From Eledone cirrhosa (Eukaryota): 64,000 nucleotides of DNA. Numbering within the stretch: position 1 is the first letter of the stretch; each line of letters begins with the position of its first letter. A model generated the notes under the pieces. It did not search any database. It was not told the origin of the DNA and saw nothing but the letters and a program-made list of their open reading frames with translations. A program made the position numbers and the translations under genes. The stretch is taken from the NCBI GenBank assembly GCA_964016885.1, contig OZ024742.1, positions 366,048,001 to 366,112,000 of the forward strand, in the 5' to 3' direction. Positions 1-55,506 of this stretch are shown here, one piece after another.

Positions 1-999
1 TGTTTTAAGGCGCCGTCGTCGTCGGCGATCGCGTCGGCGGCGGTCTCTCGTTTCGACAGTTCGACCGCCGACCGCCTCGCCGGCGTTACGATTCGCGGGG
101 TGCCGGCATCGGACGCACTTCCCCTTCGATCCGTCGTCGCGATCCGTTCCCGTCAGGCTGGATGGCGCGCGGTGTCCGCAGGTCGCAGAGCGGCGTCCCG
201 CCTAGAAAACGAACACTCCCGGTTCGCTTTCGAAGCGGGTTTCCGAAAACAGCGCTTCTCTCGACCGGGCCCGTCGCTCGGCGGCGGTTTTTTTTCCGTC
301 GTCCCAGGCACGGCTAACAGGCGGGGACGGGACAAACGCGCGTGTTCCTTTATCAGCCGCAGCGCCGTTCGTAATGCTTAGGTCGGTTTTTTATATCCTT
401 AAAATTCTGATCGGCTTTCGAGAAAGCAGCCGCCCCGTTTGCTTTTTCTCCTTTGCTCTCTTTGCGGAGCAGGCGGGAGCGGGTCGCTGGGCGGATGAGG
501 ATCGCGAGCCGTCCGCTGCTGCAAGTCTGCGACGAGCATCGGCAACCTACCCGACCCGTCTTGAAACACGGACCGAGGAGTCCCAGTCGGTTGCGAGTCG
601 TTGGAGCGAAAGAAATCGAATTTAACAAACTCCGACGGCGAAGTGAAAGCGAGAACGTGACGCGTCGTCGACGGCGGCGTTAGGGGCTGGTTTGAATTGG
701 CGGCATGCGGCATGGCCTTCGGGTGGTGTCGCTGTTGTTTTTTTCTTCTTTTTTCCGCGCTGTCGTAGGCGTTTCGAAGCATCGTTCCCGGGTCGGGTGT
801 GCGCGCGGCGTGGCGGCTTTCGGGCCGTCGGCGCGGCGCGCTCCGACTCAGGTGTAACAGGCGGCCGGGGACTCGAAAGATGGCGATTCACGCCCGGTCG
901 GGACGAAGCCAGAGGAAACTCTGGTGGAAGTCCGAAGCGCCTCTGACGTGCACATCGATCGTCAGAACCGGGTGTAGGGGCGAAAGACCAATCGAGCCG

Positions 1000-1042
<43 letters not shown>

Positions 1043-3021
1043 CGCCAGCAGCAGACAGAACGACACGCAATTCCGTCCGGTAAAGCGAACGACTGGAGGC
1101 CCCGGGGACGTTGACGGTCTCGATCTAATCTCGAACTCGGAACGGGCGAAACGGGCCGCTCTCTCTCCCGATCGGAGGCGGCCGCCGTCTCGGCGACGAA
1201 TGCACGGTGCCAAATGGGCCACTTTTGGTAAGCAGAACTGGTGATGTGGGATGAACCGAACGTCCGGCTAAGGTGCCCTACGCTTCGCCCATTAGATCCC
1301 CGAAAGGGTGTCGGTCGATATAGACAGCAGGACGGTGGCCACGGAAGTCGGAATCCGCTCAGGAGTGTGTAACAACTTACCTGCCGAATCGACCGGCCCC
1401 GAAAATGTATGGCGCTGGAGCGAGCGACCGATGCCGGACCGGCCAGGCGATAGGCGAAAAAAGGTGACACGACGTAACTTTCTTCGATGCCTGGTCGAGT
1501 AGGAAGGCGCCGCGGCGTGCACGGAAGCCGCGGGCGTGAGCCCGGGTGAAGCCGACCGCGGGTGCAGATCTCGGTGGTAGTAGCAAATATTCGAACGAGA
1601 CCTTCGAAGACCGAAGGGGAGAAGGGTTCCGTGCCAACGGCGGTCGAGCACGGGTCAGTCGGTCCTAAGAAGCGGGCGAAAGCTTGTACGAAAGGCGCCG
1701 GATCCGTTGTCGAGAAAGAGAAAGAGAAAAAAAAAATCGTTTTTTTTCTTCTCTGTTTTTGTTACGGCCGGCCTTGCATCGAAAGGGAATCGGGTTAATA
1801 TTCCCGAACCCGAACTCGGAGAGTGCTCGTCCGTCGGTGGAATTTAACGCGTCGTCGCGTCATCGAAGCCGGCGGTCGGGCGAAGCAGCGGCAACGCAAG
1901 CGAGCCCGGAGACGTTGCCGGGAGCCCCGGGAAAAGTTCTCACTTCTTCGTAAGGACCGCGTCCGTGGAATCGGCTCGTCAGGAGATACGGATATGGTAC
2001 CTGTAGAGCGCCGCGTCTAGGGCGGCGTCCGGTGCGCTCTCGGCGGCCCTGGAAAATCCGGGTCCGTAACGATTCGCAGCTCTCGAGTCGGTCCGTACCC
2101 ACCATCCGCAGCAGGTCTCCAAGGTGTACAGCCTCTCGTCGATAGCGCCAATGTAGGTAAGGGAAGTCGGCAAAATGGATCCGTACCTTCGGAAGAAGGA
2201 TTGGCTCCGAGGACCGGGTCGGTCGGGCCGTGTGTGTGTCGGCCTGTCGGCTGTCTTGCTGTTTTTTTTCAAAAACTCAGGATCGGTCGCGCGGCACGTC
2301 TGTACACGAAGCGGTGAACCGGTACGGGGCTGTAGCGTTGGCGTCGGACTCGACGTTCGAGCGTCGGTCGGGTGGCCGGTTTGCGCCCGTTTCGTTGCGT
2401 TCATTTCGTTTTTCCTTGCCCTTCTTTCGGTTGGCGGCAAGGAGAGAGAGAGGAAGAAGGCAGCGGCGGCTGCGGGTTGGTCGCGCGGTGGCGGACGGGG
2501 TTGAAAGATTACCGCGTAGGAGGGATGAAGGCGCATCATATGGAGAGGCTTGTCGCCCGTAAGGGCGGTTTGTTTTTTTACTCTGCTCGCTTTTGTTTTG
2601 TTCTTTCGGTTTTTTTTCTTTCCTTACTATTCGTCGCAGTGCCGGCGGCTCGCGCGTCGTCGTCGTCTTTTTTTCTTCGTTTTCTTCGTTTTTGTCGGTC
2701 GGAAACAAAAACGGGGGGCTTGTAGAGGCAAGCATGCGTAAGAGAGCGGCGTTTCGGTCGCTTTTTGCGACGTTCGGTGCGTAGTGGGCGCGAACAACAC
2801 GGCTCCACGCCTGGGACACCGTGGAGCGACACGGCTTCGGGCTCGTTGGCGCGTCGGTAGCTTCTTTCTTTCTTCTTCGCGAGGAGGAGGGCGGTTGCCG
2901 AGACGCGCGGCAGGCGTTCGGCCGGCGGCGAACGGTCAACTCGGAACTGGTACGGACCGGGGGAATCCGACTGTCTAATTAAAACAGAGCATCGCGTAGC
3001 CGGCCGAGCCGCATAGACGCG

Positions 3022-3053
<32 letters not shown>

Positions 3054-3070
3054 AGTGAAGAAATTCAACT

Positions 3071-3108
<38 letters not shown>
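1..3108 (+). rRNA. 28S: 28S (LSU) rRNA gene, part upstream of the R2-site insertion (begins before the window)
   Basis: Conserved LSU motifs in order: ACCCGTCTTGAAACACGGACC (554), GGGGCGAAAGACCAATCGA, TTTCCCTCAGGATAGCTGG, GGTAAGCAGAACTGG, CCGCAGCAGGTCTCCAAGGTG, TTTCTGCCCAGTGCTCTGAATGTCAAAGTGAAGAAATTCAA...GTAACTATGACTCTCTT (ends 3108). Long GC- and T-rich expansion segments lie between them. Confidence 0.98.
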
Positions 3109-4474
3109 GGTCGGCGCTACCCTTGAAGTGGGAAGAGAGCTTAAGTCCGTGGTTTGAGCTGTACGAGTGAGTCAACTTGACGCGTGTCTATGCCTTCGGA
3201 CGCGTGTCCGTACCTTCGGAAGTTCGGCTCCGTTCGGGTGTCGGGCCTGCTCGGAAGTTCGGCTCCGAGGTGCGGGTTCAGGTTGGCTCGGCAGGTTTTA
3301 CCATACTCGGGTGGTCTGCCACACTAAGGACGAACTAATTGGCGCATAAAATAATGATTGAAAGATTATTAAAAATCATTTATATCCGTACGGTAGCTGG
3401 GGGCTGTTTTAAAGCCAGTGACCGAGGGGTCGGGTTGGGCCCCTTAGGTTTACTAGGAGTTCTGTAATTTCTGCCCAGTGCTCTGAATGTCAAAGTGAAG
3501 AAATTCAACCGAGCGCGGGTAAAACGGCGGGAATAGCTATGATTCTCTTAGGTCTACCGCAGTGTGCCGTTGTGGTATCTCCGTGATGGTATTTTAGCGT
3601 GCCGTGATGGTATTTCCGCTGCCGTAATGGTTCGCTGTGGTATTTAACCACCCTTGAGGGCTGACAAGGAGCCGGGGCATGCCCTTTGGATTAGAGCTGG
3701 CTCAGATTTTTTTTTTTTGCCCTTTTTTTAATTATTTTTTTTTTTGTGTGTGGACGCGGAAGTGCCTGGAAACTCTCTTTCTAATTTTTTTTTTTAACCC
3801 GGTGAGCGGTCGGATATAATATCCGAGAAGGGAAAAGTAAGACGTCTCCGCCGTTCCGCTAGTCTGGTGGTTCGCCTTGGGAAAGCGATAGAATCACCTT
3901 ATCCCCCCGTTGCAGGGTTACGCGTCTCTTAAATTAAAGTGCTTTTTTTTTTGTATTATTAATTAACAGTTTCGTTATTTTAGGAATGAGAAGGGAGTGA
4001 CTAAATGGATTCTGGAGCGCCCCCTTTTTTTTTTAAGTACAATGGCACGACCAAGGAGTTTAGAACCTCTCTGTGCGGGGGTTCGGGCAACAGGATCTCC
4101 TCGCGGGGTTCAAGGTTCGGATTGCTCACTTGGCGCGACCAACCGGATTGACAGAATGGCACGACCAGAAGAGATTAGTACCTCGCATTGTTCGCTCGGT
4201 AGGGGGGTTCCCAGCCAACCCTCGCAGGGTCCATGGCTTGGACTGCTCTCTTGGCGTGACCAACCGGATTGACAGATGGCACGGCTGATGGCGGTTCGAA
4301 TTGCGGTCGGCGTGACATGATGACTCTGCCACGGCCGATGGGCGGTTTGGATTGCGGTCGGCGTGACCAACCGGATTGACATGGGCACACCGTTCATGCC
4401 ATAGTGTGCCACTTTAAAAGCAGGGAAAGGCATCTTATGTTTTGAGAAAAGCATAAGTTAAATGCCAGCTATCA
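3109..4474 (+). mobile_element. Non-coding insertion at the 28S R2 target site (candidate non-autonomous R2-dependent element, or two stacked insertions)
   Basis: 28S stops at GACTCTCTT (3108) and resumes at TAGCCAAATGCC (4475). The 3' junction is the canonical R2 site AAGG^TAGCC, with a small deletion of upstream target and no TSD. No RT or endonuclease ORF is present. Internal 28S copy at 3463-3552. Confidence 0.85.
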
Positions 4475-4549
4475 TAGCCAAATGCCTCGTCATCTGATTA
4501 GTGACGCGCATGAACGGATCAACGAGATTCCCACTGTCCCTATCTACTG

Positions 4550-4581
<32 letters not shown>

Positions 4582-5136
4582 AGACGGATCGGTGGGGAAA
4601 CAAGACCCTGTTGAGCTTGACTCTAGTCTGGTTTTGTGAGGGCACACGGTAGGCGTAGCATAGGCGGGAGCAATCTTGCGTCTCTCGGCAGGCGGCAGCG
4701 TCGTTTGCGGGTCGCTTGCGGCTTTGCGGCGGCGTTTGCCGTCTGTCGGGTACCGTGCGCGTTTGCGTCGAAGAAAAACCGCCACTTCCGTAGTTTCTTC
4801 GCTCACTCGATTGAGAAGGGACGGGGCCGTCGCCGAGCGGTGGTTCATTTATCTGGTGCGAAGCGTGCGGTGCATGTCACGCGCGCACACGTTGTGCGCC
4901 GACGCAGCCGATGCGCGACACTTAGTCGAGAACAGTGTCGGTCGGGGAGTTTGACTGGGGCGGTACGTCTGTCAAAGGGTAACGCAGGTGTCCCAAGGCG
5001 AGCTCAGCGTGGACGGAAACCACACGTTGAGCAAAAGGGCAAAAGCTTGCTCGATCTCGATTTTCAGTACGAATACGGACCGCGAAAGCGTGGCCCATCG
5101 AGCCTTTCCGAATAGCGGCGAGCTATGCGTCCGCCG

Positions 5137-5179
<43 letters not shown>

Positions 5180-5202
5180 GGCCAAGCGTTCGCAGCGACG
5201 TC

Positions 5203-5240
<38 letters not shown>

Positions 5241-5282
5241 CGAAGCAGAATTCGCAAAGCGTTGGATTGTTCACCCACTAAC

Positions 5283-5329
<47 letters not shown>

Positions 5330-5790
5330 TCCTACCGATGCATTGCGTGTAGGCGGCGGCGGTGGCGGCTGCAGCCACCTTCTCGAAGGCGGCTGCGGTC
5401 GGCGTCGCCGCCGGCAACGTCAACTCGGCTACGGCTATCCCGTCCAGTACGAGAGGAACCGCGGGATCAGAGCAACGGTTTGCGCGCTCGCTCGATAGAG
5501 CGGTGGTGCCAGGCTGCCTCTGAGCGATAACGGCTGAACGCCTCTAAGCCAGAACCGTAGCCGGACCCGAGCTGTTTTTCGAAAGCGTCTCAACCTTCTT
5601 AAGGCGCATGCCTTAGTTTGGCGATTGCCGTCCGTTCGGCGAAGTCGCTTCCCTTTTCGGGGTGCGCGTCGTCGTCAGGTTGTGCCAACGTTTGCCAGGT
5701 TGTGCCAACGACCCTCAAAGTTGATTAGCATCGAAAAAAGAGAGAGTTCACGGTGAATGCGACACAGCCTTGGTTCGAGTGCCGCCGATC
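4475..5790 (+). rRNA. 28S: 28S rRNA gene, 3' part (3' end approximate)
   Basis: TAGCCAAATGCCTCGTCATC, unoccupied R1 site CACTGTCCCTATCTAC, GGGAGTTTGACTGGGGCGGTAC, peptidyl-transferase motifs GATGTCGGCTCTTCCTATC and GAGCTGGGTTTAGACCGTCGTGAGACAGGTTAG, sarcin-ricin loop AGTACGAGAGGA (5446-5457). Confidence 0.96.
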
Positions 5791-9800: not shown

Positions 9801-10650
9801 CCCCTCATGGTGGGTAGACAGGTATGTTGAATCATCATGGTGGGTAGACAGGGGAGTTGACCCCTCATGGTGGGTAGACAGGTATGTTGAATCATCATGG
9901 TGGGTAGACAGGGGAGTTGACCCCTCATGGTGGGTAGACAGGGAGTTGACCTCACATGGTGAGTAACTGTAGACAGGGGAGTTGACCCATCATGGTGGGT
10001 AACTGTAGACAGGGGAGTTGACCCCTCATGGTGGGTAACTGCAGACAGGGAGATTTTCCCTGATACGTGTTAGACGGGGGAGTTGACACCTCAAGGTAGG
10101 TAACTGTAGACAGGGGCGTTGACCCCTCATGGTGGGTAGACAGGGGATTTGACCCCTTGTGGTGGGTAACTGTAGACAGGGGAGTTGACCCCTAATGGTG
10201 AGTAGACAGGGGAGTTGACCCCTCATTGTGGGTAACTGTAGACCGGGGAGTTGACCCCTCATTGTGGGTAACTGTAGACAGGGGAGTTGACCACTCATCG
10301 TGGGTAACTGTAGACAGGGGAATTGATGACTCATGGTGGGTAGACAGGGGAGTTGACCCATCATTGTGGGTAACTGTAGACAGGGTAGTTGACCACTCGT
10401 AGTAGGTAACTGTAGTCAGGGGAGTTGACACCTCATTGTGTGTAGACAGGGGAGTTGACCACTAATGGTGGGTAACAGTAGACAGGGAAGTTGACCCCTC
10501 GTGGTGGGTAACTGTAGACATGGGAGTTGATCCCTCATGGTGGGTAACTCTAGACAGGGAAGTTGACCGCTCGTCGTGGGTAACTGTAGACAGGGGAGTT
10601 GATGCCTGGTGGTGGGTAACTGTAGAGAGAGGAGTTGATCCCTCATGGGG
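6886..10650. repeat. G-rich satellite with mixed 27-bp and 36-bp units
   Basis: Tandem units of consensus GGTGGGTA(ACTGTA)GACAGGGGAGTTGA(C/T)CCCTCAT, with 9- and 12-residue periodicity in the ORF track. Confidence 0.97.
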
Positions 10651-10651
10651 G

Positions 10652-12007
10652 GTCTACAGTTTCGCCGAAACACTTGTGCCCATCACCGACCAGGAAAGAA
10701 AAATCATCCTCCACGCCAGGAAGACAGTCTTACTCTTTGACAACTCTAAATGGATAAAAAGAGCTCCCGACTCACACTTCGACGTCAGCATGGGCGCCAC
10801 GGATTCGGCGGAGGTCACAGATCTTATAGGATTATTCCTAATAGCCAAACTCACCGATATGTTTCCTGCATTCGGTGGTGGATTGTACCGTGATGATGGG
10901 CTTCTTACCCTTAAAGGGTACAATCCCAGTAGTACAGATCGGGTCCGGAAACAATTAATCAGCTTCTTCCGCGACTGGGGATTTAAAATAACCCTACAAA
11001 CGTCCCTGACCCGAGTAAACTTCCTAGACGTGACCCTCGACCTCGAAAACGACCTGTACTACCCATACAGGAAACCTAATGACAACCTGCACTACATCCA
11101 CCGCCGATCAAACCATCCTAGGAACATCACCTACAACCTGGTCAAAAACATCGCCCTCCGCATATCCCGTTTGTCAGCTAATGAGCGGATATTCGATGAA
11201 CATGCGCCTTATTACAACCAGGCCCTCAAGCGGAGTGGTTTCCGGGAGGAAATATCCTACTGTCCAGCTCCCATTAGCGGAACCAGCAGGAGACACCGCC
11301 GCTCACGCAATGTAACATGGTTCAATCCTCCCCACAACGCCGAGGTGACAACCCCTATCGGGAAAATATTCTTTAGGCTCATTGAAAAACACTTCCCACT
11401 ACAACACCGCTACCACAACATAATTAACAAAAATACCATCAAACTCTCTTACAGCCCTACACCAAACTTCGCACAAAACATCGTCTCCTCTAACAACAAA
11501 AAACTCAACCCCGATGGAAGAAATAACCTAAATAGCAGTGGAGAGCCGACCAGGAGGTGCAACTGTCCGGATAGATCCATTTGCCCACTCGACAATAGAT
11601 GCAGAGATCGTAATGTGATCTACCAGTGCAACGTGAGGACGGACACCTCCAACAAAGCTTATATAGGATTAACCACATGTGACTTCAAGACCCAGCTATA
11701 CCAACATAGACATACCTTCCGAAACCCGGCCCGCCGTCACGCCACTACACTTTCGAGCCACATATGGGACCTCAAGGACAACAACATCACCTAAGATCTC
11801 ACTTGGAGATTACTGTCCAGAGCCAACTCTTACACGGGGGGACGCCGTCCGTGCAATTTATGCTCGGAGGAAACTTTACAAATGCTGTTTTCGACGGACC
11901 AACTCCTAAACAAGAAAGATGAACTGGTTACTGCATGTAAACATAGATTGCGTAGGACTTACCTCGCCCTCAAACCCCATAATGACCCGGGGGCGGGGGT
12001 AGACTAG
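10652..12007 (+). pseudogene. PLE RT + GIY-YIG endonuclease ORF remnant, 5'-truncated, one premature TAA
   Basis: The frame continues past TAA (11792-11794) as DLTWRLLSRANSYTGGRRPCNLCSEE...NKKDELVTACKHR to TAG at 12007. The first ~44 residues of the listed ORF are satellite read-through. Confidence 0.88.
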
Positions 12008-24445: not shown

Positions 24446-24728
24446 GTTTTCCAGTCGCGACCATAATAAAGTCGTGTTGTCCTTGAGCAAGACACTTTAT
24501 CTCACGTTGAGCCCACATAGCTGGCAATCATAGGTTGTACCTCTAATTCAAAGAGTCACCCATGTCAAGCTGAATCTTCCCCTATAAACTGTGAAGTGAC
24601 ACGTGTCTGTGGCGTGCTCAGGCACCTATCGTTAATTTCATGAATGTATTGTTTCATTGAACAAATACAAACATCCGTAGTCAGAACCTACGGAGCTCCA
24701 TGTTTCTACCATTTGCTAATAGATTGTA

Positions 24729-27700
24729 CCACCAGGTCAGTCAACCACACACCACCACCAGGTCAGTCAACCACACACCACCACCAGGTCAGTCAACCAC
24801 ACACCACCACCAGGTCAGTCAACCACACACCACCACCAGGTCAGTCAACCACACACCACCACCAGGTCAGTCAACCACACACCACCACCAGGTCAGTCAA
24901 CCACACACCACCACCAGGTCAGTCAACCACACACCACCACCAGGTCAGTCAACCACACACCACCACCAGGTCAGTCAACCACACACCACCACCAGGTCAG
25001 TCAACCACACACCAACACCACCACCAGGTCAGTCAACTACACACCACCACCAGGTCAGTCAACCACACACCACCACCACCACCAGGTCAGTCAACCACAC
25101 ACCACCACCAGGTCAGTCAACCACACACCACCACCAGGTCAGTCAACTACACACCACCACCACCACCAGGTCAGTCAACCACATACACACCACCACCACC
25201 AGGTCAGTCAACCACATACACACCACCACCACCAACAAGTCAGTCAACCACACACACCACCACCAACAGGTCAGTCAGCTACACACCACCACCACCAGGT
25301 CTGTCAACCACACACACACCACCACCACCAGGTCAGTCAACCACACACACACCACCACCACGACCAGGTCAGTCAGGTACACACACCACCACCACTACCA
25401 CCAGGTCAGTCAACCACACACACACCACCACTACCAGGTCAGTCAACCACACACCACCACCACCACCAGGTCAGTCAACCACACACACACCACCACCACC
25501 ACTACCAGGTCAGTCAACCACACACACACCACCACCAGGTCAGTCAGGTACACACACCACCGACACCACCACCACCAGGTCAGTCAACCACACACCACCA
25601 CCACCACCACCACCAGGTCAGTCAGCTACACACACACCACCACCACAACCACCACCACCAGGTCAGTCAACCACACACCACCACCAGGTCAGTCAACCAC
25701 ACACACACCACCACCACCGCCATGTCAGTCAACAACACACCACCACCACTTCCAGGTCAGTCAACCACACACACACCACCACCACCGCCATGTCAGTCAA
25801 CCACACACCACCACCACCACCACCAGGTCAGTCAGCTACACACCACCACCACCAGGTCAGTCAGCTACACACCACCACAACCACCAGGTCAGTCAACCAC
25901 ACACACACCACCACAACCACCAGGTCAGTCAACCACACACACACCACCACCACCACGAGGTCAGTCAACCACACACACACCACCACCACCACCACCAGGT
26001 CAGTCAACCACACACACACCACCAGGTCAGTCAGGTACACACCACCACCACCACCACCAGGTCAGTCAGCTACACACCACCACCACCACCAGGTCAGTCA
26101 ACCACACACACACCGCCACCACCACGAGGTCAGTCAACCACACACACACCACCACCACCAGGTCAGTCAACCACACACCACCACCACCACCAGGTCAGTC
26201 AACCACACACCACCACCACCACCAGGTCAGTCAACCACACACCACCACCACCACCAGGTCAGTCAACCACACACCACCACCACCACCAGGTCAGTCAACC
26301 ACACACCACCACCAGGTCAGTCAACCACACACACACCACCACCACCAGGTCAGTCAACCACACACCACCACCACCACCAGGTCAGTCAACCACACACACG
26401 CCACCACCACCAGGTCAGTCAACCACACACACGCCACCACCACCAGGTCAGTCAACCACACACCACCACCACCACCAGGTCAGTCAACCACACACCACCA
26501 CCAGGTCAGTCAACCATACACACGCCACCACCACCAGGTCAGTCAACCACACACACGCCACCACCACCAGGTCAGTCAACCACACACCACCACCACCACC
26601 ACCAGGTCAGTCAACCACACACCACCACCACCACCAGGTCAGTCAACCACACACACGCCACCACCACCAGGTCAGTCAACCACACACACACACCACCACC
26701 ACCAGGTCAGTCAACCACACACACGCCACCACCACCACCAGGTCAGTCAACCACACACCACCACCACCACCAGGTCAGTCAACCACACACACACACCACC
26801 ACCACCAGGTCAGTCAACCACACACCACCACCACCACCAGGTCAGTCAACCACACACACACACCACCACCACCAGGTCAGTCAACCACACACACGCCACC
26901 ACCACCAGGTCAGTCAACCACACACACGCCACCACCACCACCAGGTCAGTCAACCACACACCACCACCACCACCAGGTCAGTCAACCACACACACACCAC
27001 CACCACCAGGTCAGTCAACCACACACACACACCACCACCACCAGGTCAGTCAACCACACACACGCCACCACCACCACCAGGTCAGTCAACCCCACACCAC
27101 CACCACCACCAGGTCAGTCAACCACACACACGCCACCACCACCACCAGGTCAGTCAACCACACACACACACCACCACCACCAGGTCAGTCAACCACACAC
27201 ACACCACCACCACCAGGTCAGTCAACCACACACACACACCACCACCACCAGGTCAGTCAACCACACACACACCACCACCACCAGGTCAGTCAACCACACA
27301 CACACACCACCACCACCAGGTCAGTCAACCACACACACACCACCACCACCAGGTCAGTCAACCACACACCACCACCACCACCACCACCAGGTCAGTCAAC
27401 CACACACCACCACCACCAGGTCAGTCAACCACACACACGCCACCACCACCAGGTCAGTCAACCACACACCACCACCACCACCACCAGGTCAGTCAACCAC
27501 ACACCACCACCACCACCAGGTCAGTCAACCACACACCACCACCACCACCACCAGGTCAGTCAACCACACACCACCACCACCACCACCAGGTCAGTCAACC
27601 ACACACCACCACCACCACCAGGTCAGTCAACCACACACCACCACCACCACCACCAGGTCAGTCAACCACACACCACCACCACCACCAGGTCAGTCAACCA

Positions 27701-30700
27701 CACACCACCACCACCACCAGGTCAGTCAACCACACACCACCACCACCACCACCACCAGGTCAGTCAACCACACACCACCACCACCACCACCAGGTCAGTC
27801 AACCACACACCACCACCACCACCACCAGGTCAGTCAACCACACTCCACCACCACCACCACCAGGTCAGTCAACCACACACCACCACCACCACCACCAGGT
27901 CAGTCAACCACACACCACCACCACCACCACCAGGTCAGTCAACCACACACCACCACCACCACCAGGTCAGTCAACCACACACCACCACCACCACCACCAG
28001 GTCAGTCAACCACACTCCACCACCACCACCAGGTCAGTCAACCACACACCACCACCACCACCACCAGGTCAGTCAACCACACACACCACCACCACCACCA
28101 GGTCAGTCAACCACACACACCACCACCACCACCAGGTCAGTCAACCACACACCACCACCACCACCAGGTCAGTCAACCACACACCACCACCACCACCACC
28201 AGGTCAGTCAACCACACACCACCACCACCACCACCACCAGGTCAGTCAACCACACACACCACCACCACCACCAGGTCAGTCAACCACACACCACCACCAC
28301 CACCAGGTCAGTCAACCACACTCCACCACCACCACCACCAGGTCAGTCAACCACACACCACCACCACCACCAGGTCAGTCAACCACACACCACCACCACC
28401 ACCACCAGGTCAGTCAACCACACACCACCACCACCACCACCACCAGGTCAGTCAACCACACACCACCACCACCAGGTCAGTCAACCACACACCACCACCA
28501 CCACCAGGTCAGTCAACCACACACCACCACCACCACCAGGTCAGTCAACCACACACCACCACCACCACCACCAGGTCAGTCAACCACACACCACCACCAC
28601 TTCCAGGTCAGTCAACCACACACCACCACCACCACCAGGTCAGTCAACCACACACCACCACCACCACCAGGTCAGTCAACCACACACCACCACCACCACC
28701 AGGTCAGTCAACCACACACCACCACCACCACCAGGTCAGTCAACCACACACCACCACCACCACCACCACCAGGTCAGTCAACCACACACCACCACCACCA
28801 CCACCAGGTCAGTCAACCACACACCACCACCACCACCACCACCACCAGGTCAGTCAACCACACACCACCACCACCACCACCACCAGGTCAGTCAACCACA
28901 CACCACCACCACCACCACCAGGTCAGTCAACCACACACCACCACCACCACCACCACCAGGTCAGTCAACCACACACCACCACCACCACCACCAGGTCAGT
29001 CAACCACACACCACCGCCACCACCACCACCACCAGGTCAGTCAACCACACACCACCACCACCACCACCACCAGGTCAGTCAACCACACACCACCACCACC
29101 AGGTCAGTCAACCACACACCACCACCACCACCACCAGGTCAGTCAACCACACACCACCACCACCACCACCAGGTCAGTCAACCACACACCACCACCACCA
29201 CCACCAGGTCAGTCAACCACACACCACCACCACCACCACCAGGTCAGTCAACCACACACCACCACCACCACCACCAGGTCAGTCAACCACACACCACCAC
29301 CACCACCAGGTCAGTCAACCACACACCACCACCACCACCACCACCACCAGGTCAGTCAACCACACACCACCACCACCACCACCAGGTCAGTCAACCACAC
29401 ACCACCACCACCACCACCACCAGGTCAGTCAACCACACACCACCACCACCACCACCAGGTCAGTCAACCACACACCACCACCACCACCACCACCACCAGG
29501 TCAGTCAACCACACACCACCACCACCACCACCACCAGGTCAGTCAACCACACACCACCACCACCACCACCACCACCAGGTCAGTCAACCACACACCACCA
29601 CCACCACCACCAGGTCAGTCAACCACACACACCACCACCACCACCAGGTCAGTCAACCACACACCACCACCACCACCACCACCACCAGGTCAGTCAACCA
29701 CACACCACCACCACCACCACCACCAGGTCAGTCAACCACACACACACCACCACCACCAGGTCAGTCAACCACACACCACCACCACCACCACCACCAGGTC
29801 AGTCAACCACACACACCACCACCACCACCAGGTCAGTCAACCACACACCACCACCACCACCACCAGGTCAGTCAACCACACACCACCACCACCACCAGGT
29901 CAGTCAACCACACACCACCACCACCACCAGGTCAGTCAACCACACACCACCACCACCACCACCAGGTCAGTCAACCACACACCACCACCACCACCAGGTC
30001 AGTCAACCACACACCACCACCACCACCAGGTCAGTCAACCACACACCACCGCCACCACCACCAGGTCAGTCAACCACACACACCACCACCACCACCAGGT
30101 CAGTCAACCACACACACCACCACCACCACCAGGTCAGTCAACCACACACACCACCACCACCACCAGGTCAGTCAACCACACACACCACCACCACCACCAG
30201 GTCAGTCAACCACACACCACCACCAGGTCAGTCAACCACACACCACCACCACCACCAGGTCAGTCAACCACACACCACCACCACCACCACCAGGTCAGTC
30301 AACCACACACCACCACCACCACCACCAGGTCAGTCAACCACACACCACCACCACCACCACCAGGTCAGTCAACCACACACCACCACCACCACCACCAGGT
30401 CAGTCAACCACACACCACCACCACCACCAAGTCAGTCAACCACACACCACCGCCACCACCACCAGGTCAGTCAACCACACACACACACCACCACCACCAG
30501 GTCAGTCAACCACACACCACCGCCACCACCACCAGGTCAGTGAACCACACACCACCACCACCACCACCACCAGGTCAGTCAACCACACACACCACCACCA
30601 CCACCAGGTCAGTCAACCACACACCACCACCACCACCACCAGGTCAGTCAACCACACACGCCACCACCACCAGGTCAGTCAACCACACACCACCACCACC

Positions 30701-32665
30701 ACCACCAGGTCAGTCAACCACACACCACCACCACCACCAGGTCAGTCAACCACACACCACCACCACCACCACCAGGTCAGTCAACCACACACCACCACCA
30801 CCACCACCAGGTCAGTCAACCACACACCACCACCACCACCAGGTCAGTCAACCACACACCACCACCACCACCACCAGGTCAGTCAACCACACACCACCAC
30901 CACCACCACCACCAGGTCAGTCAACCACACACACCACCACCACCACCAGGTCAGTCAACCAGACACCACCACCACCACCACCAGGTCAGTCAACCACACA
31001 CCACCACCACCACCAGGTCAGTCAACCACACACCACCGCCACCACCACCAGGTCAGTCAACCACACACCACCACCACCACCAGGTCAGTCAACCACACAC
31101 CACCACCACCACCACCAGGTCAGTCAACCACACACCACCACCACCACCACCAGGTCAGTCAACCACACACCACCACCACCACCACCAGGTCAGTCAACCA
31201 CACACCACCACCACCACCAGGTCAGTCAACCACACACCACCACCACCACCAGGTCAGTCAACCACACACCACCACCACCACCACCAGGTCAGTCAACCAC
31301 ACACCACCACCACCAGGTCAGTCAACCACACACACCACCACCACCACCAGGTCAGTCAACCACACACACCACCACCACCAGGTCAGTCAAGCACACACCA
31401 CCACCAGGTCAGTCAACCACACACCACCACCACCACCAGGTCAGTCAACCACACACCACCACCACCACCAGGTCAGTCAACCACACACCACCACCACCAC
31501 CACCAGGTCAGTCAACCACACACACCACCACCACCAGGTCAGTCAACCACACACCACCACCACCACCAGGTCAGTCAACCACACACCACCGCCACCACCA
31601 CCACCAGGTCAGTCAACCACACGCACACCACCACTACCAGGTCAGTCAACCACACACCACCACCACCACCACCAGGTCAGTCAACCACACACCACCGCCA
31701 GGTCAGTCAACCACACACCACCACCACCACCACCAGGTCAGTCAACCACACACCACCACCAGGTCAGTCAACCACACACCACCACCACCACCACCACCAG
31801 GTCAGTCAACCACACACCACCGCCACCACCACCACCAGGTCAGTCAACCACACTCCACCACCAGGTCAGTCAACCACACACCACCGCCACCACCACCACC
31901 ACCAGGTCAGTCAACCACACACCACCACCACCAGGTCAGTCAACCACACACACCACCACCACCACCAGGTCAGTCAACCACACACCACCACCAGGTCAGT
32001 CAACCACACTCCACCACCACCACCACCACCAGGTCAGTCAACCACACTCCACCACCAGGTCAGTCAACCACACACACGCCACCACCACCAGGTCAGTCAA
32101 CCACACTCCACCACCCCAACAACCAGGTCAGTCAACCACACACTCCACCACCAGGTCAGTCAACCACACACCACCACCACCACCACCAGGTCAGTCAACC
32201 ACACACCACCACCACCACCACCACCAGGTCAGTCAACCACACACCACCACCACCACCAGGTCAGTCAACCACACACCACCACCACCACCAGGTCAGTCAA
32301 CCACACACACCACCACCACCACCACCAGGTCAGTCAACCACACTCCACCACCACCACCAGGTCAGTCAACCACACACCACCACCACCACCACCACCAGGT
32401 CAGTCAACCACACACCACCACCACCACCACCACCAGGTCAGTCAACCACACACCACCACCACCACCACCACCAGGTCAGTCAACCACACACACCACCACC
32501 ACCACCACCACCAGGTCAGTCAACCACACACCACCACCACCACCACCACCAGGTCAGTCAACCACACACACCACCACCACCACCACCACCAGGTCAGTCA
32601 ACCACACACCACCACCACCACCACCAGGTCAGTCAACCACACACCACCACCACCACCACCACCAT
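24729..32665. repeat. ~7.9-kb minisatellite AGGTCAGTCAACCAC(AC)n(ACC)n
   Basis: Near-invariant AGGTCAGTCAACC spacer between variable CA and CCA runs. It explains the three His/Thr/Pro ORFs. Confidence 0.98.
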
Positions 32666-32769
32666 CGTTCACTGGAGCATATGCAGATATTCAGTGAGTT
32701 GTGTGACTTTTCCATTCACCATTCATCTGTGACATCATAATGGGACATGACAACTTGGGGAGGGGGGGC

Positions 32770-35727: not shown

Positions 35728-36329
35728 TATATATATATATATATATATTTATAAATTAAAGTATAGAAATTGTTGTGAGCGTGAAGCCAACAGTATTTCA
35801 TAATATATATATATATATATATACATATATGTATATATGTATATATATTTATATATTTTATATATATATACACAATGTGGGCTGGGTACTTTTTGTTATG
35901 TTACCTATAAGACGACTTTATGAGCAAGAAATGGTCATCGGAACGTGGTTTGTCTCACAACAGAGCAACTCGTTTAAAAAAGGCTAGCATGGAAAATTGG
36001 AGGTTAAACTATGATGATGATGTTTTATATATACACACACACACACACACATATATATATATGTGTGTGTGTGTGTGTAATTAAAATAATAAAGGGTTAA
36101 AAAACATGTTTACAGTACACAGTGTTAAAATATGATTGTGATGACAATGATGTTGACATTGTAAAAATATTTTAACCTAAATAATTTAATTTCCTTTTTA
36201 AACCTTATTCATTGTCACAACCATCAGTTTCCAACATCACTACCACCACTGCCTCTACTGCCAGCACCACCTCTACCACCACCACCACCATCATCATCAT
36301 TACCACATCATTCAGCATTGCTGAAGCTA

Positions 36330-39300
36330 TCACTCCCACCACCTACAGCACCACCACCAAAACCATGGCTGCAAATACCTTCATCATTACTACCACCACC
36401 ACCACCACCACCCTAACCATAGCTGTCAATACCATCATCATTACCACCACCACCACCACCACCACCACCACCACCCTAACCATAGCTGTCAATACCTTCA
36501 TCATTACTACCACCACCACCACCACCACCCTAACCATAGCTGTCAATACCATCATCATTACCACCACCACCACCACCACCCTAACCATAGCTGTCAATAC
36601 CATCATCATTACCACCACCACCACCACCACCCTAACCATAGCTGTCAATACCTTCATCATTACTACCACCACCACCACCACCACCCTAACCATAGCTGTC
36701 AATACCATCATCATTACTACCACCACCACCACCACCACCACCACCCTAACCATGGCTGTCAATACCTTCATCATTACTACCACCACCACCACCACCACCC
36801 TAACCATAGCTGTCAATACCATCATCATTACCACCACCACCACCACCACCCTAACCATAGCTGTCAATACCATCATCATTACCACCACCACCACCACCAC
36901 CCTAACCATAGCTGTCAATACCTTCATCATTACTACCACCACCACCACCACCACCCTAACCATAGCTGTCAATACCCTCATCATTACCACCACCACCACC
37001 ACCACCACCACCACCACCCTAACCATAGCTGTCAATACCATCATCATTACCACCACCACCACCACCACCACCACCACCACCACCACCACCACCCTAACCA
37101 TAGCTGTCAATACCATCATCATTACCACCACCACCACCCGAACCATAGCTGTCAATACCATCATCATTACTACCACCACCACCACCACCACCACCCTAAC
37201 CATGGCTATCAATACCATCATCATTACCACCACCACCACCACCACCACCCTAACCATAGCTGTCAATACCACCACCACCACCACCACCACCCTAACCATA
37301 GCTGTCAATACCATCATCATTACCACCACCACCACCACCCTAACCATGGCTGTCAATACCCTCATCATTACCACCACCACCACCACCCTAACCATAGCTG
37401 TCAATACCACCACCACCACCACCACCACCCTAACCATAGCTGTCAATACCCTCATCATTACCACCACCACCACCACCCTAACCATGGCTGTCAATACCCT
37501 CATCATTACCACCACCACCACCACCACCACCCTAACCATAGCTGTCAATACCACCACCACTACCACCACCACCCTAACCATAGCTGTCAATACCATCATC
37601 ATTACCACCACCACCACCACCACCACCCTAACCATGGCTGTCAATACCATCATCATTACCACCACCACCACCACCACCACCCTAACCATAGCTGTCAATA
37701 CCTTCATCATTACCACCACCACCACCACCACCACCACCACCACCCTAACCATAGCTGTCAATACCATCATCATTACCACCACCACCACCACCCTAACCAT
37801 AGCTGTCAATACCATCATTACTACCACCACCACCACCACCACCACCACCACCCTAACCATAGCTGTCAATACCATCATTACTACCACCACCACCACCACC
37901 ACCACCCTAACCATAGCTGTCAATACCATCATTACTACCACCACCACCACCCTAACCATGGCTGTCAATACCATCATCATTACTACCACCACCACCACCA
38001 CCACCACCCTAACCATAGCTGTCAATACCATCATTACCACCACCACCACCACCCTAACCATGGCTGTCAATACCATCATCATTACTACCACCACCACCAC
38101 CACCACCACCCTAACCATAGCTGTCAATACCATCATTACCACCACCACCACCACCCTAACCATGGCTGTCAATACCATCATCATTACCACCACCACCACC
38201 ACCACCACCCTAACCATAGCTGTCAATACCATCATCATTACTACCACCACCACCACCACCACCACCCTAACCATAGCTGTCAATACCATCATTACTACCA
38301 CCACCACCACCACCACCCTAACCTTAGCTGTCAATACCATCACCACCACCACCACCACCCTAACCATAGCTGTCAATACCATCATCATTACCACCACCAC
38401 CACCACCACCACCCTAACCATAGCTGTCAATACCATCATCATTACCACCACCACCACCACCACCACCACCACCACCACCCTAACCATAGCTGTCAATACC
38501 TTCATCATTACTACCACCACCACCACCACCACCACCCTAACCATAGCTGTCAATACCATCATTACTACCACCACCACCACCACCACCACCCTAACCATAG
38601 CTGTCAATACCATCATCATTACCACCACCACCACCACCACCACCCTACCATAGCTGTCAATACCATCATCATTACCACCACCACCACCACCACCACCCTA
38701 ACCATAGCTGTCAATACCTTCATCATTACTACCACCACCACCACCACCACCACCCTAACCATAGCTGTCAATACCATCATTACTACCACCACCACCACCA
38801 CCACCACCCTAACCATAGCTGTCAATACCATCATCATTACCACCACCACCACCACCACCACCCTACCATAGCTGTCAATACCATCATCATTACCACCACC
38901 ACCACCACCACCACCCTACCATAGCTGTCAATACCATCATCATTACCACCACCACCACCACCACCACCCTAACCATAGCTGTCAATACCATCATTACTAC
39001 CACCACCACCACCACCACCACCCTAACCTTAGCTGTCAATACCATCATCATTACCACCACCACCACCACCACCACCACCCTAACCATAGCTGTCAATACC
39101 ATCATCATTACTACCACCACCACCACCACCACCCTAACCATAGCTGTCAATACCATCATCATTACTACCACCACCACCACCACCACCACCCTAACCATAG
39201 CTGTCAATACCATCATTACTACCACCACCACCACCACCCTAACCATAGCTGTCAATACCATCATCATTACTACCACCACCACCACCACCCTAACCATAGC

Positions 39301-42300
39301 TGTCAATACCATCATTACTACCACCACCACCACCACCACCACCCTAACCATAGCTGTCAATACCATCATTACTACCACCACCACCACCACCCTAACCATA
39401 GCTGTCAATACCATCATCATTACTACCACCACCACCACCACCCGAACCATAGCTGTCAATACCATCATTACTACCACCACCACCACCACCACCACCACCC
39501 TAACCATAGCTGTCAATACCATCATCATTACCACCACCACCACCACCACCACCCTAACCATAGCTGTCAATACCATCATTACTACCACCACCACCACCAC
39601 CCTAACCATAGCTGTCAATACCATCATTACTACCACCACCACCACCACCACCACCACCACCCTAACCTTAGCTGTCAATACCATCATCATTACTACCACC
39701 ACCAGCACCACCACCCTAACCATAGCTGTCAATACCATCATTACCACCACCACCACCACCACCACCCTAACCATAGCTGTCAATACCATCATTACTACCA
39801 CCACCACCACCACCACCACCACCACCCTAACCTTAGCTGTCAATACCATCATCATTACTACCACCACCACCACCACCACCCTACCATAGCTGTCAATACC
39901 ATCATTACCACCACCACCACCACCACCACCCTAACCATAGCTGTCAATACCATCATTACTACCACCACCACCACCACCACCACCCTAACCTTAGCTGTCA
40001 ATACCATCATCATTACTACCACCACCACCACCACCACCACCACCCTAACCATAGCTGTCAATACCATCATTACTACCACCACCACCACCACCACCCTAAC
40101 CATAGCTGTCAATACCCTCATTACTACCACCACCACCACCACCACCACCCTAACCATAGCTGTCAATACCATCATCATTACTACCACCACCACCACCACC
40201 ACCACCCTAACCATAGCTGTCAATACCATCATTACTACCACCACCACCACCACCACCACCCTAACCATAGCTGTCAATACCATCATTACTACCACCACCA
40301 CCACCCTAACCATAGCTGTCAATACCATCATCATTACCACAACCACCACCACCACCACCCTAACCATAGCTGTCAATACCATCATTACTACCACCACCAC
40401 CCTAACCATAGCTGTCAATACCATCATCATTACCACAACCACCACCACCACCACCCTAACCATAGCTGTCAATACCATCATTACTACCACCACCACCCTA
40501 ACCATAGCTGTCAATACCATCATCATTACCACAACCACCACCACCACCACCCTAACCATAGCTGTCAATACCATCATTACTACCACCACCACCCTAACCA
40601 TAGCTGTCAATACCATCATCATTACCACCACCACCACCACCACCACCCTAACCATAGCTGTCAATACCATCATTACTACCACCACCACCCTAACCATAGC
40701 TGTCAATACCATCATCATTACCACAACCACCACCACCACCACCCTAACCATAGCTGTCAATACCATCATCATTACTACCACCACCACCACCACCACCCTA
40801 ACCTTAGCTGTCAATACCATCATCATTACTACCACCACCACCCTACCATAGCTGTCAATACCATCATCATTACCACCACCACCACCACCACCACCCTAAC
40901 CATAGCTGTCAATACCATCATTACTACCACCACCACCACCACCACCACCCTAACCATAGCTGTCAATACCATCATCATTACCACCACCACCACCACCACC
41001 ACCCTAACCATAGCTGTCAATACCATCATCATTACCACAACCACCACCACCACCACCCTAACCATAGCTGTCAATACCATCATCATTACCACCACCACCA
41101 CCACCACCACCCTAACCATAGCTGTCAATACCATCATTACTACCACCACCACCACCACCACCACCCTAACCATAGCTGTCAATACCATCATCATTACCAC
41201 CACCACCACCACCACCACCCTAACCATAGCTGTCAATACCATCATCATTACCACAACCACCACCACCACCACCCTAACCATAGCTGTCAATACCATCATC
41301 ATTACCACCACCACCACCACCACCACCACCCTAACCATAGCTGTCAATACCATCATCATTACTACCACCACCACCCTACCATAGCTGTCAATACCATCAT
41401 CATTACCACCACCACCACCACCACCACCCTAACCATGGCTGTCAATACCTTCATCATTACCACCACCACCACCACCACCCTAACCATAGCTGTCAATACC
41501 TTCATCATTACCACCACCACCACCACCACCACCCTAACCATGGCTGTCAATACCATCATCATTACTACCACCACCACCACCACCACCCTAACCATGGCTG
41601 TCAATACCTTCATCATTACCACCACCACCACCACCACCACCACCCTAACCATAGCTGTCAATACCTTCATCATTACCACCACCACCACCACCACCACCCT
41701 AACCATAGCTGTCAATACCTTCATCATTACCACCACCACCACCACCACCACCCTAACCATAGCTGTCAATACCTTCATCATTACCACCACCACCACCACC
41801 ACCACCACCCTAACCATAGCTGTCAATACCTTCATCATTACCACCACCACCACCACCACCCTAACCATAGCTGTCAATACCTTCATCATTACCACCACCA
41901 CCACCACCACCACCACCCTAACCATGGCTGTCAATACCTTCATCATTACCACCACCACCACCACCACCCTAACCATAGCTGTCAATACCTTCATCATTAC
42001 CACCACCACCACCACCACCACCCTAACCATAGCTGTCAATACCTTCATCATTACTACCACCACCACCACCACCACCACCACCCTAACCATGGCTGTCAAT
42101 ACCTTCATCATTACCACCACCACCACCACCACCCTAACCATAGCTGTCAATACCTTCATCATTACCACCACCACCACCACCACCCTAACCATAGCTGTCA
42201 ATACCTTCATCATTACCACCACCACCACCACCACCACCACCCTAATCATAGCTGTCAATACCTTCATCATTACCACCACCACCACCACCACCACCACCCT

Positions 42301-45300
42301 AACCATAGCTGTCAATACCTTCATCATTACCACCACCACCACCACCACCACCCTAACCATAGCTGTCAATACCTTCATCATTACTACCACCACCACCACC
42401 ACCACCCTAATCATAGCTGTCAATACCTTCATCATTACTACCACCACCACCACCACCACCCTAACCATAGCTGTCAATACCATCATCATTACCACCACCA
42501 CCACCACCACCACCCTAACCATAGCTGTCAATACCATCATCATTACCACCACCACCACCACCACCCTAACCATAGCTGTCAATACCATCATTACTACCAC
42601 CACCACCACCACCCTAACCATAGCTGTCAATACCATCATCATTACTACCACCACCACCACCACCCTAACCATAGCTGTCAATACCATCATTACTACCACC
42701 ACCACCACCACCACCACCCTAACCATAGCTGTCAATACCATCATTACTACCACCACCACCACCACCCTAACCATAGCTGTCAATACCATCATCATTACTA
42801 CCACCACCACCACCACCCGAACCATAGCTGTCAATACCATCATTACTACCACCACCACCACCACCACCACCACCCTAACCATAGCTGTCAATACCATCAT
42901 CATTACCACCACCACCACCACCACCACCCTAACCATAGCTGTCAATACCATCATTACTACCACCACCACCACCACCCTAACCATAGCTGTCAATACCATC
43001 ATTACTACCACCACCACCACCACCACCACCACCACCCTAACCTTAGCTGTCAATACCATCATCATTACTACCACCACCAGCACCACCACCCTAACCATAG
43101 CTGTCAATACCATCATTACCACCACCACCACCACCACCACCCTAACCATAGCTGTCAATACCATCATTACTACCACCACCACCACCACCACCACCACCAC
43201 CCTAACCTTAGCTGTCAATACCATCATCATTACTACCACCACCACCACCACCACCCTAACCATAGCTGTCAATACCATCATTACCACCACCACCACCACC
43301 ACCACCCTAACCATAGCTGTCAATACCATCATTACTACCACCACCACCACCACCACCACCCTAACCTTAGCTGTCAATACCATCATCATTACTACCACCA
43401 CCACCACCACCACCACCACCCTAACCATAGCTGTCAATACCATCATTACTACCACCACCACCACCACCACCCTAACCATAGCTGTCAATACCCTCATTAC
43501 TACCACCACCACCACCACCACCACCCTAACCATAGCTGTCAATACCATCATCATTACTACCACCACCACCACCACCACCACCCTAACCATAGCTGTCAAT
43601 ACCATCATTACTACCACCACCACCACCACCACCACCCTAACCATAGCTGTCAATACCATCATTACTACCACCACCACCCCCTAACCATAGCTGTCAATAC
43701 CATCATCATTACCACAACCACCACCACCACCACCCTAACCATAGCTGTCAATACCATCATTACTACCACCACCACCCTAACCATAGCTGTCAATACCATC
43801 ATCATTACCACAACCACCACCACCACCACCCTAACCATAGCTGTCAATACCATCATTACTACCACCACCACCCTAACCATAGCTGTCAATACCATCATCA
43901 TTACCACAACCACCACCACCACCACCCTAACCATAGCTGTCAATACCATCATTACTACCACCACCACCCTAACCATAGCTGTCAATACCATCATCATTAC
44001 CACAACCACCACCACCACCACCCTAACCATAGCTGTCAATACCATCATTACTACCACCACCACCCTAACCATAGCTGTCAATACCATCATCATTACCACC
44101 ACCACCACCACCACCACCCTAACCATAGCTGTCAATACCATCATTACTACCACCACCACCCTAACCATAGCTGTCAATACCATCATCATTACCACAACCA
44201 CCACCACCACCACCCTAACCATAGCTGTCAATACCATCATCATTACTACCACCACCACCACCACCACCCTAACCTTAGCTGTCAATACCATCATCATTAC
44301 TACCACCACCACCCTACCATAGCTGTCAATACCATCATCATTACCACCACCACCACCACCACCACCCTAACCATAGCTGTCAATACCATCATTACTACCA
44401 CCACCACCACCACCACCACCCTAACCATAGCTGTCAATACCATCATCATTACCACCACCACCACCACCACCACCCTAACCATAGCTGTCAATACCATCAT
44501 CATTACCACAACCACCACCACCACCACCCTAACCATAGCTGTCAATACCATCATCATTACCACCACCACCACCACCACCACCCTAACCATAGCTGTCAAT
44601 ACCATCATTACTACCACCACCACCACCACCACCACCCTAACCATAGCTGTCAATACCATCATCATTACCACCACCACCACCACCACCACCCTAACCATAG
44701 CTGTCAATACCATCATCATTACCACAACCACCACCACCACCACCCTAACCATAGCTGTCAATACCATCATCATTACCACCACCACCACCACCACCACCAC
44801 CCTAACCATAGCTGTCAATACCATCATCATTACTACCACCACCACCCTACCATAGCTGTCAATACCATCATCATTACCACCACCACCACCACCACCACCC
44901 TAACCATGGCTGTCAATACCTTCATCATTACCACCACCACCACCACCACCCTAACCATAGCTGTCAATACCTTCATCATTACCACCACCACCACCACCAC
45001 CACCCTAACCATGGCTGTCAATACCATCATCATTACTACCACCACCACCACCACCACCCTAACCATGGCTGTCAATACCTTCATCATTACCACCACCACC
45101 ACCACCACCACCACCCTAACCATAGCTGTCAATACCTTCATCATTACCACCACCACCACCACCACCACCCTAACCATAGCTGTCAATACCTTCATCATTA
45201 CCACCACCACCACCACCACCACCCTAACCATAGCTGTCAATACCTTCATCATTACCACCACCACCACCACCACCACCACCCTAACCATAGCTGTCAATAC

Positions 45301-47860: not shown

Positions 47861-47939
47861 AGTAACATTCCTGAGTCATTGACACTAATTACCTTTGAAT
47901 ACCTCAAACTATAACCATACACACCCACTTACACTCCCA

Positions 47940-48882
47940 GACACACTCACAGACACAGTTACACTCACATCCACACTCATGTAGACACAGTTACACTCAC
48001 ATCCACACAGACACAGTTACACTCACACAGACACAGTTACACTCACATCCACACAGACACAGTTACACTCACATCCACACTCATGCAGACACAGTTACAC
48101 TCACATCCACACAGACACAGTTACACTCACACAGACACAGTTACACTCACATCCACACAGACACAGTTACACTCACACAGACACAGTTACACTCACACAG
48201 ACACAGTTACACTCACATCCACACAGACACAGTTACACTCACATCCACACTCATGCAGACACAGTTACACTCACATCCACACAGACACAGTTACACTCAC
48301 ACAGATACAGTTACACTCACATCCACACAGACACAGTTACACTCACATTCACACAGACACAGTTACACTCACATCCACACTCATGCAGACACAGTTACAC
48401 TCACATCCACACAGACACAGTTACACTCACACAGACACAGTTACACTCACATCCACACAGACACAGTTACACTCACGCAGACACAGTTACACTCACATTC
48501 ACAGTTACACTCACATCCACACAGACACAGTTACACTCACATCCACACAGACACAGTTACACTCACATCCACACAGACACAGTTACACTCACATCCACAC
48601 AGACACAGTTACACTCACATCCACTCACGCAGACACAGTTACACTCACATTCACACAGACACAGTTACACTCACATCCACACAGACACAGTTACACTCAC
48701 ATCCAGTTACTCTCACATCCACACTCACACAGACACAGTTACACTCACATCCACACAGATACAGTTACACTCACACTCACAAACACAGTTACTCTCACAT
48801 CCACACTCACACAGACACCGTTACACTCACATCCACACTCACACAGACACAGTTACTCTCACATACACAGTTACTCTCACAC
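47940..48882. repeat. Minisatellite ACAGACACAGTTACACTCAC(ATCCAC)
   Basis: Direct reading; units of 20-32 bp. Confidence 0.95.
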
Positions 48883-55432: not shown

Positions 55433-55506
55433 CTATATAACCATAACCAATGCATCTGTCTAACCCATGCTAGCGTAGGAAAATGGACGTTACACAGAGA
55501 CGATGA

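Follow-up and report, generated by a model that had tools for sequence, protein, structure and literature searches.

The 28S rRNA gene contained in the stretch of Eledone cirrhosa DNA analyzed here (64,000 nucleotides, hereafter the window) is interrupted at the canonical R2 site by an insert of 1366 nt (~1.37 kb; 3109-4474), which has a precise 3' junction and is without detectable coding remnant. The insert is made of two segments, A and B, separated by a diverged copy of the 28S sequence that lies immediately upstream of the target. By site and architecture, the composite is predicted to share the layout of an R2 SIDE, namely a ribozyme and a 3' end with no ORF in between. The account that we favour, at an even balance of probability, is that the internal copy is a fossil upstream flank of B, trapped when B was fused with A in a SIDE-like composite.

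The insert and its host gene

The 5' part of the host 28S gene (1-3108, plus strand), recognized by the Rfam LSU_rRNA_eukarya model, is GC-rich, with long expansion segments containing T tracts, and ends 4 nt before the canonical R2 nick, if the GG at 3109-3110 is assigned to the insert; the 3' part (4475-5620, plus strand) restarts exactly at the R2 site. The segment sizes given in the preliminary description were recovered: A measures 354 nt (3109-3462) and B 922 nt (3553-4474), 28S sequence being resumed at 4475. Within 540-1720 and 4475-5620 the host 28S alters many near-universal positions, mostly toward G/C and often with compensation. In the 83 nt downstream of the site, 4 out of 73 conserved positions are changed (hand count), all of them unpaired and all toward G/C. 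Departures of this kind would reflect a long-branch lineage rather than decay.

Scanning of the insert in 6 frames produced no Pfam match above cut-off, and the longest frame lying wholly within it encodes 115 aa; the insert does not contain the single long ORF, with RT and restriction-like endonuclease, of an autonomous R2. Neither A nor B could be linked by sequence to any R2 in metagenome-contig and protein searches, so that the affiliation of the insert to R2 rests on site and architecture. Pattern scans gave no match either for the ribozyme core in metagenome contigs or, in metagenome and viral contigs, for the downstream 28S peculiar to this lineage. An Rfam search with E up to 10 over 3000-4600 reported LSU and 3 sub-threshold chance matches, and no ribozyme family. 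Within the 64-kb window, A, B and the duplicated 28S segment are found only once as parts of an insert, and no further copy of any of them was detected elsewhere in it. A set of 140 words from the insert is partly present in 3 of the 6 listed sequencing runs (shares 0.56, 0.45 and 0.33), all three from one sample of one study, possibly the source of the assembly itself, and these shares carry no weight in what follows; no RNA run containing the insert was found among the runs listed.

Downstream of the gene, a 442-aa open frame (10466-11794, plus strand) begins in spacer repeats. No Pfam match was obtained for its last 382 aa, and its look-alikes in the ESM Atlas, at 0.93-0.95, include RT, GIY-YIG and HTH_animal clusters; it probably represents a truncated Penelope-like retroelement, at which the rDNA array would end. 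Since spacer repeats are followed by this Penelope-like frame, and then by non-rDNA sequence, the unit would be either the last of its array or an orphan, a location where dead, rearranged units are plausible. Farther downstream lie two long minisatellite arrays with extreme strand skew (24700-32700 and 36200-48900), containing stop-free frames of up to 2698 codons, probably non-coding; a frame with RT and PHD finger (54414-55469, minus strand), placed between long inverted repeats (54121-54900 and 56146-56926); and a single 5S rRNA gene (57694-57812, plus strand), ~52 kb from the rDNA unit.

Segment A

A predicted HDV-like ribozyme was located at 3102-3345 on the plus strand by descriptor scan, shuffles and folding. 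The nested double pseudoknot is complete in all its parts, P1, P2, P3, P1.1 and P4. P1 is formed by 3102-3108, which belong to the host 28S, and 3133-3139 (7 Watson-Crick pairs); P2 by 3114-3119 and 3340-3345, with a formation probability of 0.82-1.0; P3 by 3120-3122 and 3130-3132, closed by a 7 nt L3 (3123-3129). P1.1 is a single pair, G3125-C3140, and a long P4 extends from about 3145 to 3331. In HDV-like ribozymes P1.1 is usually a C-G pair, and the G-C pair in A is therefore reversed. J4/2 covers 3333-3339 and features a putative catalytic C at 3335; this C and the U...G pair of L3 (U3123, G3128) both agree with the HDV-like motif, as defined in part after PMC3774820.

A strict descriptor matched the real sequence once and none of 1000 dinucleotide shuffles, a relaxed one matched 11 out of 3000 shuffles, and the MFE z of the ribozyme region is -3.66; the P-values derived from shuffles are optimistic, because the descriptor was written after the fold had been seen. 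We predict that A carries an HDV-like ribozyme, borrowing one strand of P1 from the host 28S. Borrowing of P1 from upstream 28S is well documented for R2 ribozymes that cut between -9 and -36 (PMC3774820). Cleavage is predicted at about -11, and in the 7-bp register this places C3102 at +1, whereas HDV ribozymes are stated to require a 5' purine (PMC11331408); because of this non-canonical C at the cleavage site, the activity of the ribozyme is uncertain. P1 might alternatively be read in an 8-bp register, with A and C paired at -12, and the published -9 cleavage site is likewise a C, by our own count on PMC3774820 and PMC4370867. Helix 69 competes for the P1 strand, as evaluated by nested folding only.

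It had been proposed that the internal 28S copy might supply a ribozyme strand. This was not borne out: the P1 strand of the single HDV-like fold is provided by upstream host 28S, and the copy, being located downstream of the ribozyme of A, has the wrong topology to be its P1. Pairing with the 3' strand of P1 is also weaker for the copy than for the host (-7.1 vs -9.7 kcal/mol). Scanning B for an HDV-like fold with the copy as P1 gave 0 strict matches; a site in B using the copy, found with the relaxed descriptor, was rejected, as 66 out of 100 shuffles also match. No match was obtained by scanning the minus strand.

Within P4, the region 3207-3277 (plus strand) is a likely second 28S-derived piece, partly duplicated and similar to host 2180-2229 (E 0.002). 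It shares 16 nt exactly with the host 28S, a length reached in 3 out of 5000 shuffles; gapped alignments were equalled in none of 500 shuffles with strict gaps, but in 48 out of 300 with lax gaps. The presence of this second piece suggests repeated capture of rRNA fragments.

The tail of A (3339-3464, plus strand) is a 42-codon open frame, which follows an in-frame stop in J4/2 and runs up to the joint with the copy. A J4/2 stop precedes the ORF in 18 out of 19 Drosophila R2s (PMC3414825), and the tail is possibly the start of a deleted R2 ORF. Open frames of this type occur in 735 out of 20000 shuffles of 3339-3461 (3.7%), a figure that rises to 2427 (12%) if any frame is considered. No real homolog of the tail peptide was found, with 0 matches among longer proteins; 11 phmmer matches were rejected as repeat-driven chance, 10 of them carrying Sortilin-Vps10/BNR repeat families and none being RT-like. 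A thus reads as a truncated 5' end, on account of an open frame that follows the J4/2 stop and is interrupted at the joint, although a frame whose peptide has no real homolog lends weak support to this reading. At 3428-3453 a 6-bp hairpin precedes 11 nt that resemble the copy/B junction (3443-3453); the architecture resembles helix 69 plus target, with a sequence similarity that is not significant. An older 28S duplicate in the tail was also considered, and rejected, since 152 out of 500 shuffles are as good.

The internal 28S copy

The host segment duplicated inside the insert (3023-3108, plus strand) corresponds to about -90 to -5 and contains helices 68-69; its diverged copy is found at 3463-3552, on the same strand. 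As anticipated in the preliminary description, local alignment shows that 3463-3549 repeats 3023-3108 with 6 substitutions and 1 extra A, and that a run of 43 nt is identical (3027-3069 = 3467-3509). By BLAST the two align with an E of 4e-30 and 91% identity over 92 columns, a match that is therefore not due to chance. The substitutions (host/copy) are 3026/3466 G>A, 3070/3510 T>C, 3071/3511 A>G, 3092/3533 G>A, 3095/3536 A>G and 3102/3543 C>T; all 6 are transitions, and none falls at a CpG site. The extra A sits in an A-run near 3521. The distal 43 nt are thus unchanged, the proximal part contains 5 substitutions and the extra A, and one change lies at the 5' edge. The edge itself is ambiguous: the copy possibly starts at 3467, and 3463-3465 would then be either a 3-nt microhomology or a chance extension. 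Compared with the pan-animal target consensus (Table 3 of PMC4370867), the end of the copy is 1 A short, and the host flank 2 A short.

The clustering of changes toward the target, already noted from the sequence, is real, but only of modest significance (P 0.01-0.07), which varies with the assumed start of the copy: P is 0.052 for 7 changes in 87 positions, 0.071 for 6 in 83, as evaluated by the longest run, and 0.010 for the first 43 out of 83 being clean. The claim that the copy has diverged apart from its flank was substantiated at the highly conserved positions of the Rfam alignment, where changes are found at 0 out of 69 in the host segment and at 5 out of 69 in the copy (hand count). 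On this basis the copy aged separately from the homologous flank, and the contrary possibility, that the flank is equally decayed, does not hold for this segment. One of the changes hits a helix 69 loop adenine, which we take to be equivalent to E. coli A1913, while the change at 3510 coincides with the Rfam consensus base; with respect to G/C, the changes are balanced, 3 in each direction. With 7 differences from the host flank, and 354 nt separating it from the latter, the copy does not qualify as a fresh R2 tandem target duplication.

At the RNA level, the copy keeps the helix 68/69 fold. On the Rfam structure, unpaired positions account for 4 substitutions and the extra A, and the remaining 2 substitutions jointly convert a G-C pair of helix 69 (host 3092/3102) into an A-U pair, so that none of the helix 68/69 pairs is broken by the 7 changes. 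With random transitions, the probability is 0.26 of breaking no pair, 0.07 of producing a compensatory pair and ~0.03 of both, statistics that are post hoc and derive from 7 changes in one copy. The predicted folding energy is -24.2 kcal/mol for the copy vs -22.6 for the host. Among our results, it is mainly this helix-preserving pattern that pure drift accounts for poorly. Two oddities are left: the target-proximal clustering of the changes, and the unbroken helices 68/69 with one compensatory pair.

Segment B

The start of B (3553-3650, plus strand) features imperfect 21-nt tandem repeats forming a hairpin (z -2.54 for 3553-3710). Its middle part (3700-4030, plus strand) is rich in T tracts, with 40% GC, and has no folding signal above shuffles (z +0.87 for 3780-4010). 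Three tandem long-hairpin units of 106-121 nt follow at 4041-4381 (plus strand), all characterized by a nearly invariant basal stem and a common 13-nt linker, with unrelated apices; no Rfam match was found for them. They are likely to represent a structure of the 3' UTR type, as predicted from their folding, and could be a conserved protein-binding element. The 3' end of B (4382-4474, plus strand) contains two hairpins (z -2.16) and no poly(A), and adjoins the canonical R2 3' junction. The last 465 nt as a whole (4010-4474) fold with a z of -3.95, for part of which the repeats account. No 28S-derived piece was found in B above shuffles.

Discussion

New elements with respect to the preliminary description are the ribozyme predicted in A, the second 28S-derived piece, and the existence of published diverged 28S duplications borne by R2 elements. 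According to the fusion account that we favour, B would be the 3' part of an R2, devoid of a ribozyme, once resident in a 28S gene. The ~43 nt beside its junction would have diverged by long residence, or arrived as an old 28S-like leader, while the distal 28S would meanwhile have been kept identical by homogenisation. A, with its predicted ribozyme, would represent the 5' end of a second R2-type element, and its truncated tail would have been joined at about -87 of B's unit by deletion and end-joining across rDNA units, possibly through a 3-nt microhomology at the A/copy joint, or, alternatively, by a template jump of the reverse transcriptase. The ribozyme of A would cleave the co-transcribed rRNA ~11 nt before the site, the structured RNA at the end of B would be bound by the R2 protein and, if the ribozyme is active, the composite could be mobilised in trans by this protein; the copy itself would need no function. 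Such are the history and the mobility that we infer for the composite.

Two stacked insertions, one of the readings originally proposed, would have had B inserted first, with a ~87-nt tandem duplication of upstream 28S, and then a mini-element A placed upstream, the trapped duplicate ageing thereafter. This reading is possible, but we consider it unlikely, and less likely than fusion. It takes A as self-contained, made of the ribozyme and a 117-nt 3' end, and finds a precedent in R2 junctions with tandem upstream duplications of 13-28 nt, one of them with 113 further nt (PMC3774820), as well as in tandem R1 arrays, which arise by insertion into duplicated targets (PMC2718515); the tandem stacking described there, however, is that of R1, not R2. 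Moreover, the ends of A and B are unrelated in sequence, the tail of A sharing nothing with the 3' end of B, folding weakly (z -1.49) and reading as an interrupted frame, as in a truncated 5' end; and decay should have been uniform in a fresh duplicate, whereas the distal 43 nt of the copy are unchanged. Decidedly unlikely, in our view, is the possibility that the copy is a selected mimic, in which the element has retained an internal homology arm or an RNA module similar to helix 68/69, while the DNA target has been disarmed against recutting by R2. The changes of the copy fall between -43 and -1, the region bound by R2 proteins. All of them are unpaired or form the one compensatory pair of helix 69, with the P of ~0.03 reported above, and the copy folds as well as the host. 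In fish R2s, a diverged sequence resembling 28S is present in the 3' UTR, and has been proposed to make integration more stable (PMC5035012). Against a mimic stand the post hoc nature of statistics based on 7 changes in one copy, the inability of the copy to serve as P1 of the ribozyme (topology and weaker duplex), and its position 354 nt inside the insert, hence away from the cDNA end; homogenisation, in addition, explains the clean distal 43 nt equally well. More doubtful still is the broadest version of the mimic, a composite non-autonomous family of R2 parasites outside Drosophila, carrying a permanent helix 68/69 mimic under RNA-fold selection and with disarmed DNA target, in which the mimic would be an internal homology arm able to spawn precise B-only insertions, and release would be due to an atypical HDV-like ribozyme, with C at +1, reversed P1.1 and an rRNA-derived P4.

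Less credence again is given to capture of the copy from a second, divergent rDNA class, either a paralogue, an older allele or the gene of a related species. Structure-preserving changes are typical of a working rRNA, the lineage does alter conserved unpaired 28S positions, as in the 4 out of 73 hand-counted downstream, and the base at 3510 is that of the Rfam consensus. The host segment, however, is invariant at the positions where the copy has its 5 changes, the helix 69 loop adenine among them, and the departures of the host are mostly toward G/C, as judged by eye, in contrast with the balanced ones of the copy. As to an assembly artefact, or a collapsed chimera at the edge of the rDNA array, we regard it as very improbable. 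Long reads typically err by an additional base in A-runs, but six transitions including a compensatory pair are unlike an error pattern. Misassembly is frequent in rDNA arrays (PMC13188248), but the junctions here are precise to the base, and pairing of the predicted ribozyme is perfect across the 5' one.

Should the fusion account be true, the insert would offer a snapshot of the birth of a non-autonomous R2 element, with the fusion point marked by an old piece of target, a relic that bears on recombination versus template jumping as the origin of SIDEs. SIDE-like elements would also become known outside Drosophila, as far as our full-text literature search reaches, most subscription journals lying outside it; the papers that it returned on such elements were two by Eickbush and colleagues and a review on ribozymes. 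The predicted ribozyme, with a cut at about -11 and C at +1, provides a cheap test of the flexibility of the HDV fold, and is relevant to R2-based templates for genome writing, where the position of cleavage matters (PMC11331408). A copy under selection, if true, would represent a new functional module for R2-type elements.

Comparison with known R2 systems

A published ~90-nt copy of the upstream target, located downstream of a complete ribozyme, was not found in our literature search, most subscription journals being again outside its range; similarly, full-text literature search found no 'helix 69' or 'target mimic' in this context. SIDEs, as described in PMC3414825, consist of a ribozyme and a 3' end without ORF; one of them holds an ITS1-derived piece with 75% identity, and recombination or template jump has been proposed as their origin. 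The insert resembles an R2 SIDE in being non-coding and located at the 28S target, with a predicted 5' HDV-like ribozyme and a structured 3' end, and resembles that one SIDE in having an internal rDNA-derived piece, ITS1 there and 28S here. It differs from R2Dwi_SIDE in size (1366 vs 529 nt), and from Drosophila SIDEs in that its P1 is contributed by the host 28S, its internal piece is the target's own upstream flank, and poly(A) is absent.

Duplications of upstream 28S are known from several R2s. Fixed ones, with 1-3 substitutions, are reported in sow bug and horseshoe crab R2s (Eickbush, Burke & Eickbush 2013, PMC3774820); R2 5' duplications described in the same paper include one of 24 bp with 1 change, and one of 21 bp in which 3 positions are changed and which is in some cases extended by 7 or 113 nt, the 113 further duplicated nt defining one horseshoe crab junction type. 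An ageing model for diverged 5' duplications of R2 is also published there. Like horseshoe crab, sow bug, earwig and sea squirt R2s, the insert carries a substituted copy of upstream 28S, with 28S as P1. Those duplicates, as far as described (PMC3774820), are 21-26 nt long and are placed right at the 5' end, within J1/2 or ahead of it; the copy in the insert, instead, is ~90 nt long, and is located downstream of a complete predicted ribozyme.

Diverged 28S-derived sequence inside the element is likewise a feature of fish R2s (R2Gs, R2Bs-A/B and others; Kojima et al. 2016, PMC5035012). In these fish elements the 28S-like sequence belongs to the 3' UTR and is accompanied by the replacement of 110-130 bp of host 28S; unlike them, the insert keeps the host segment, and its copy is 922 nt away from the 3' end.

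In stick insects, R2 junctions feature substitutions in the 28S just upstream (PMC4370867). The insert is similar to R2Br-deg of Bacillus rossius, a dead insert with an inactive ribozyme and substituted adjacent upstream 28S, which differs in being full length, no internal 28S copy being described in the excerpts of that report (PMC4370867). The spread of R2Br-deg has been proposed to occur via rDNA recombination rather than retrotransposition (PMC4370867), and could serve as a model for the ageing of the insert. The fusion history that we favour would be a variation on R2 behaviour already known, and not a new kind of system.
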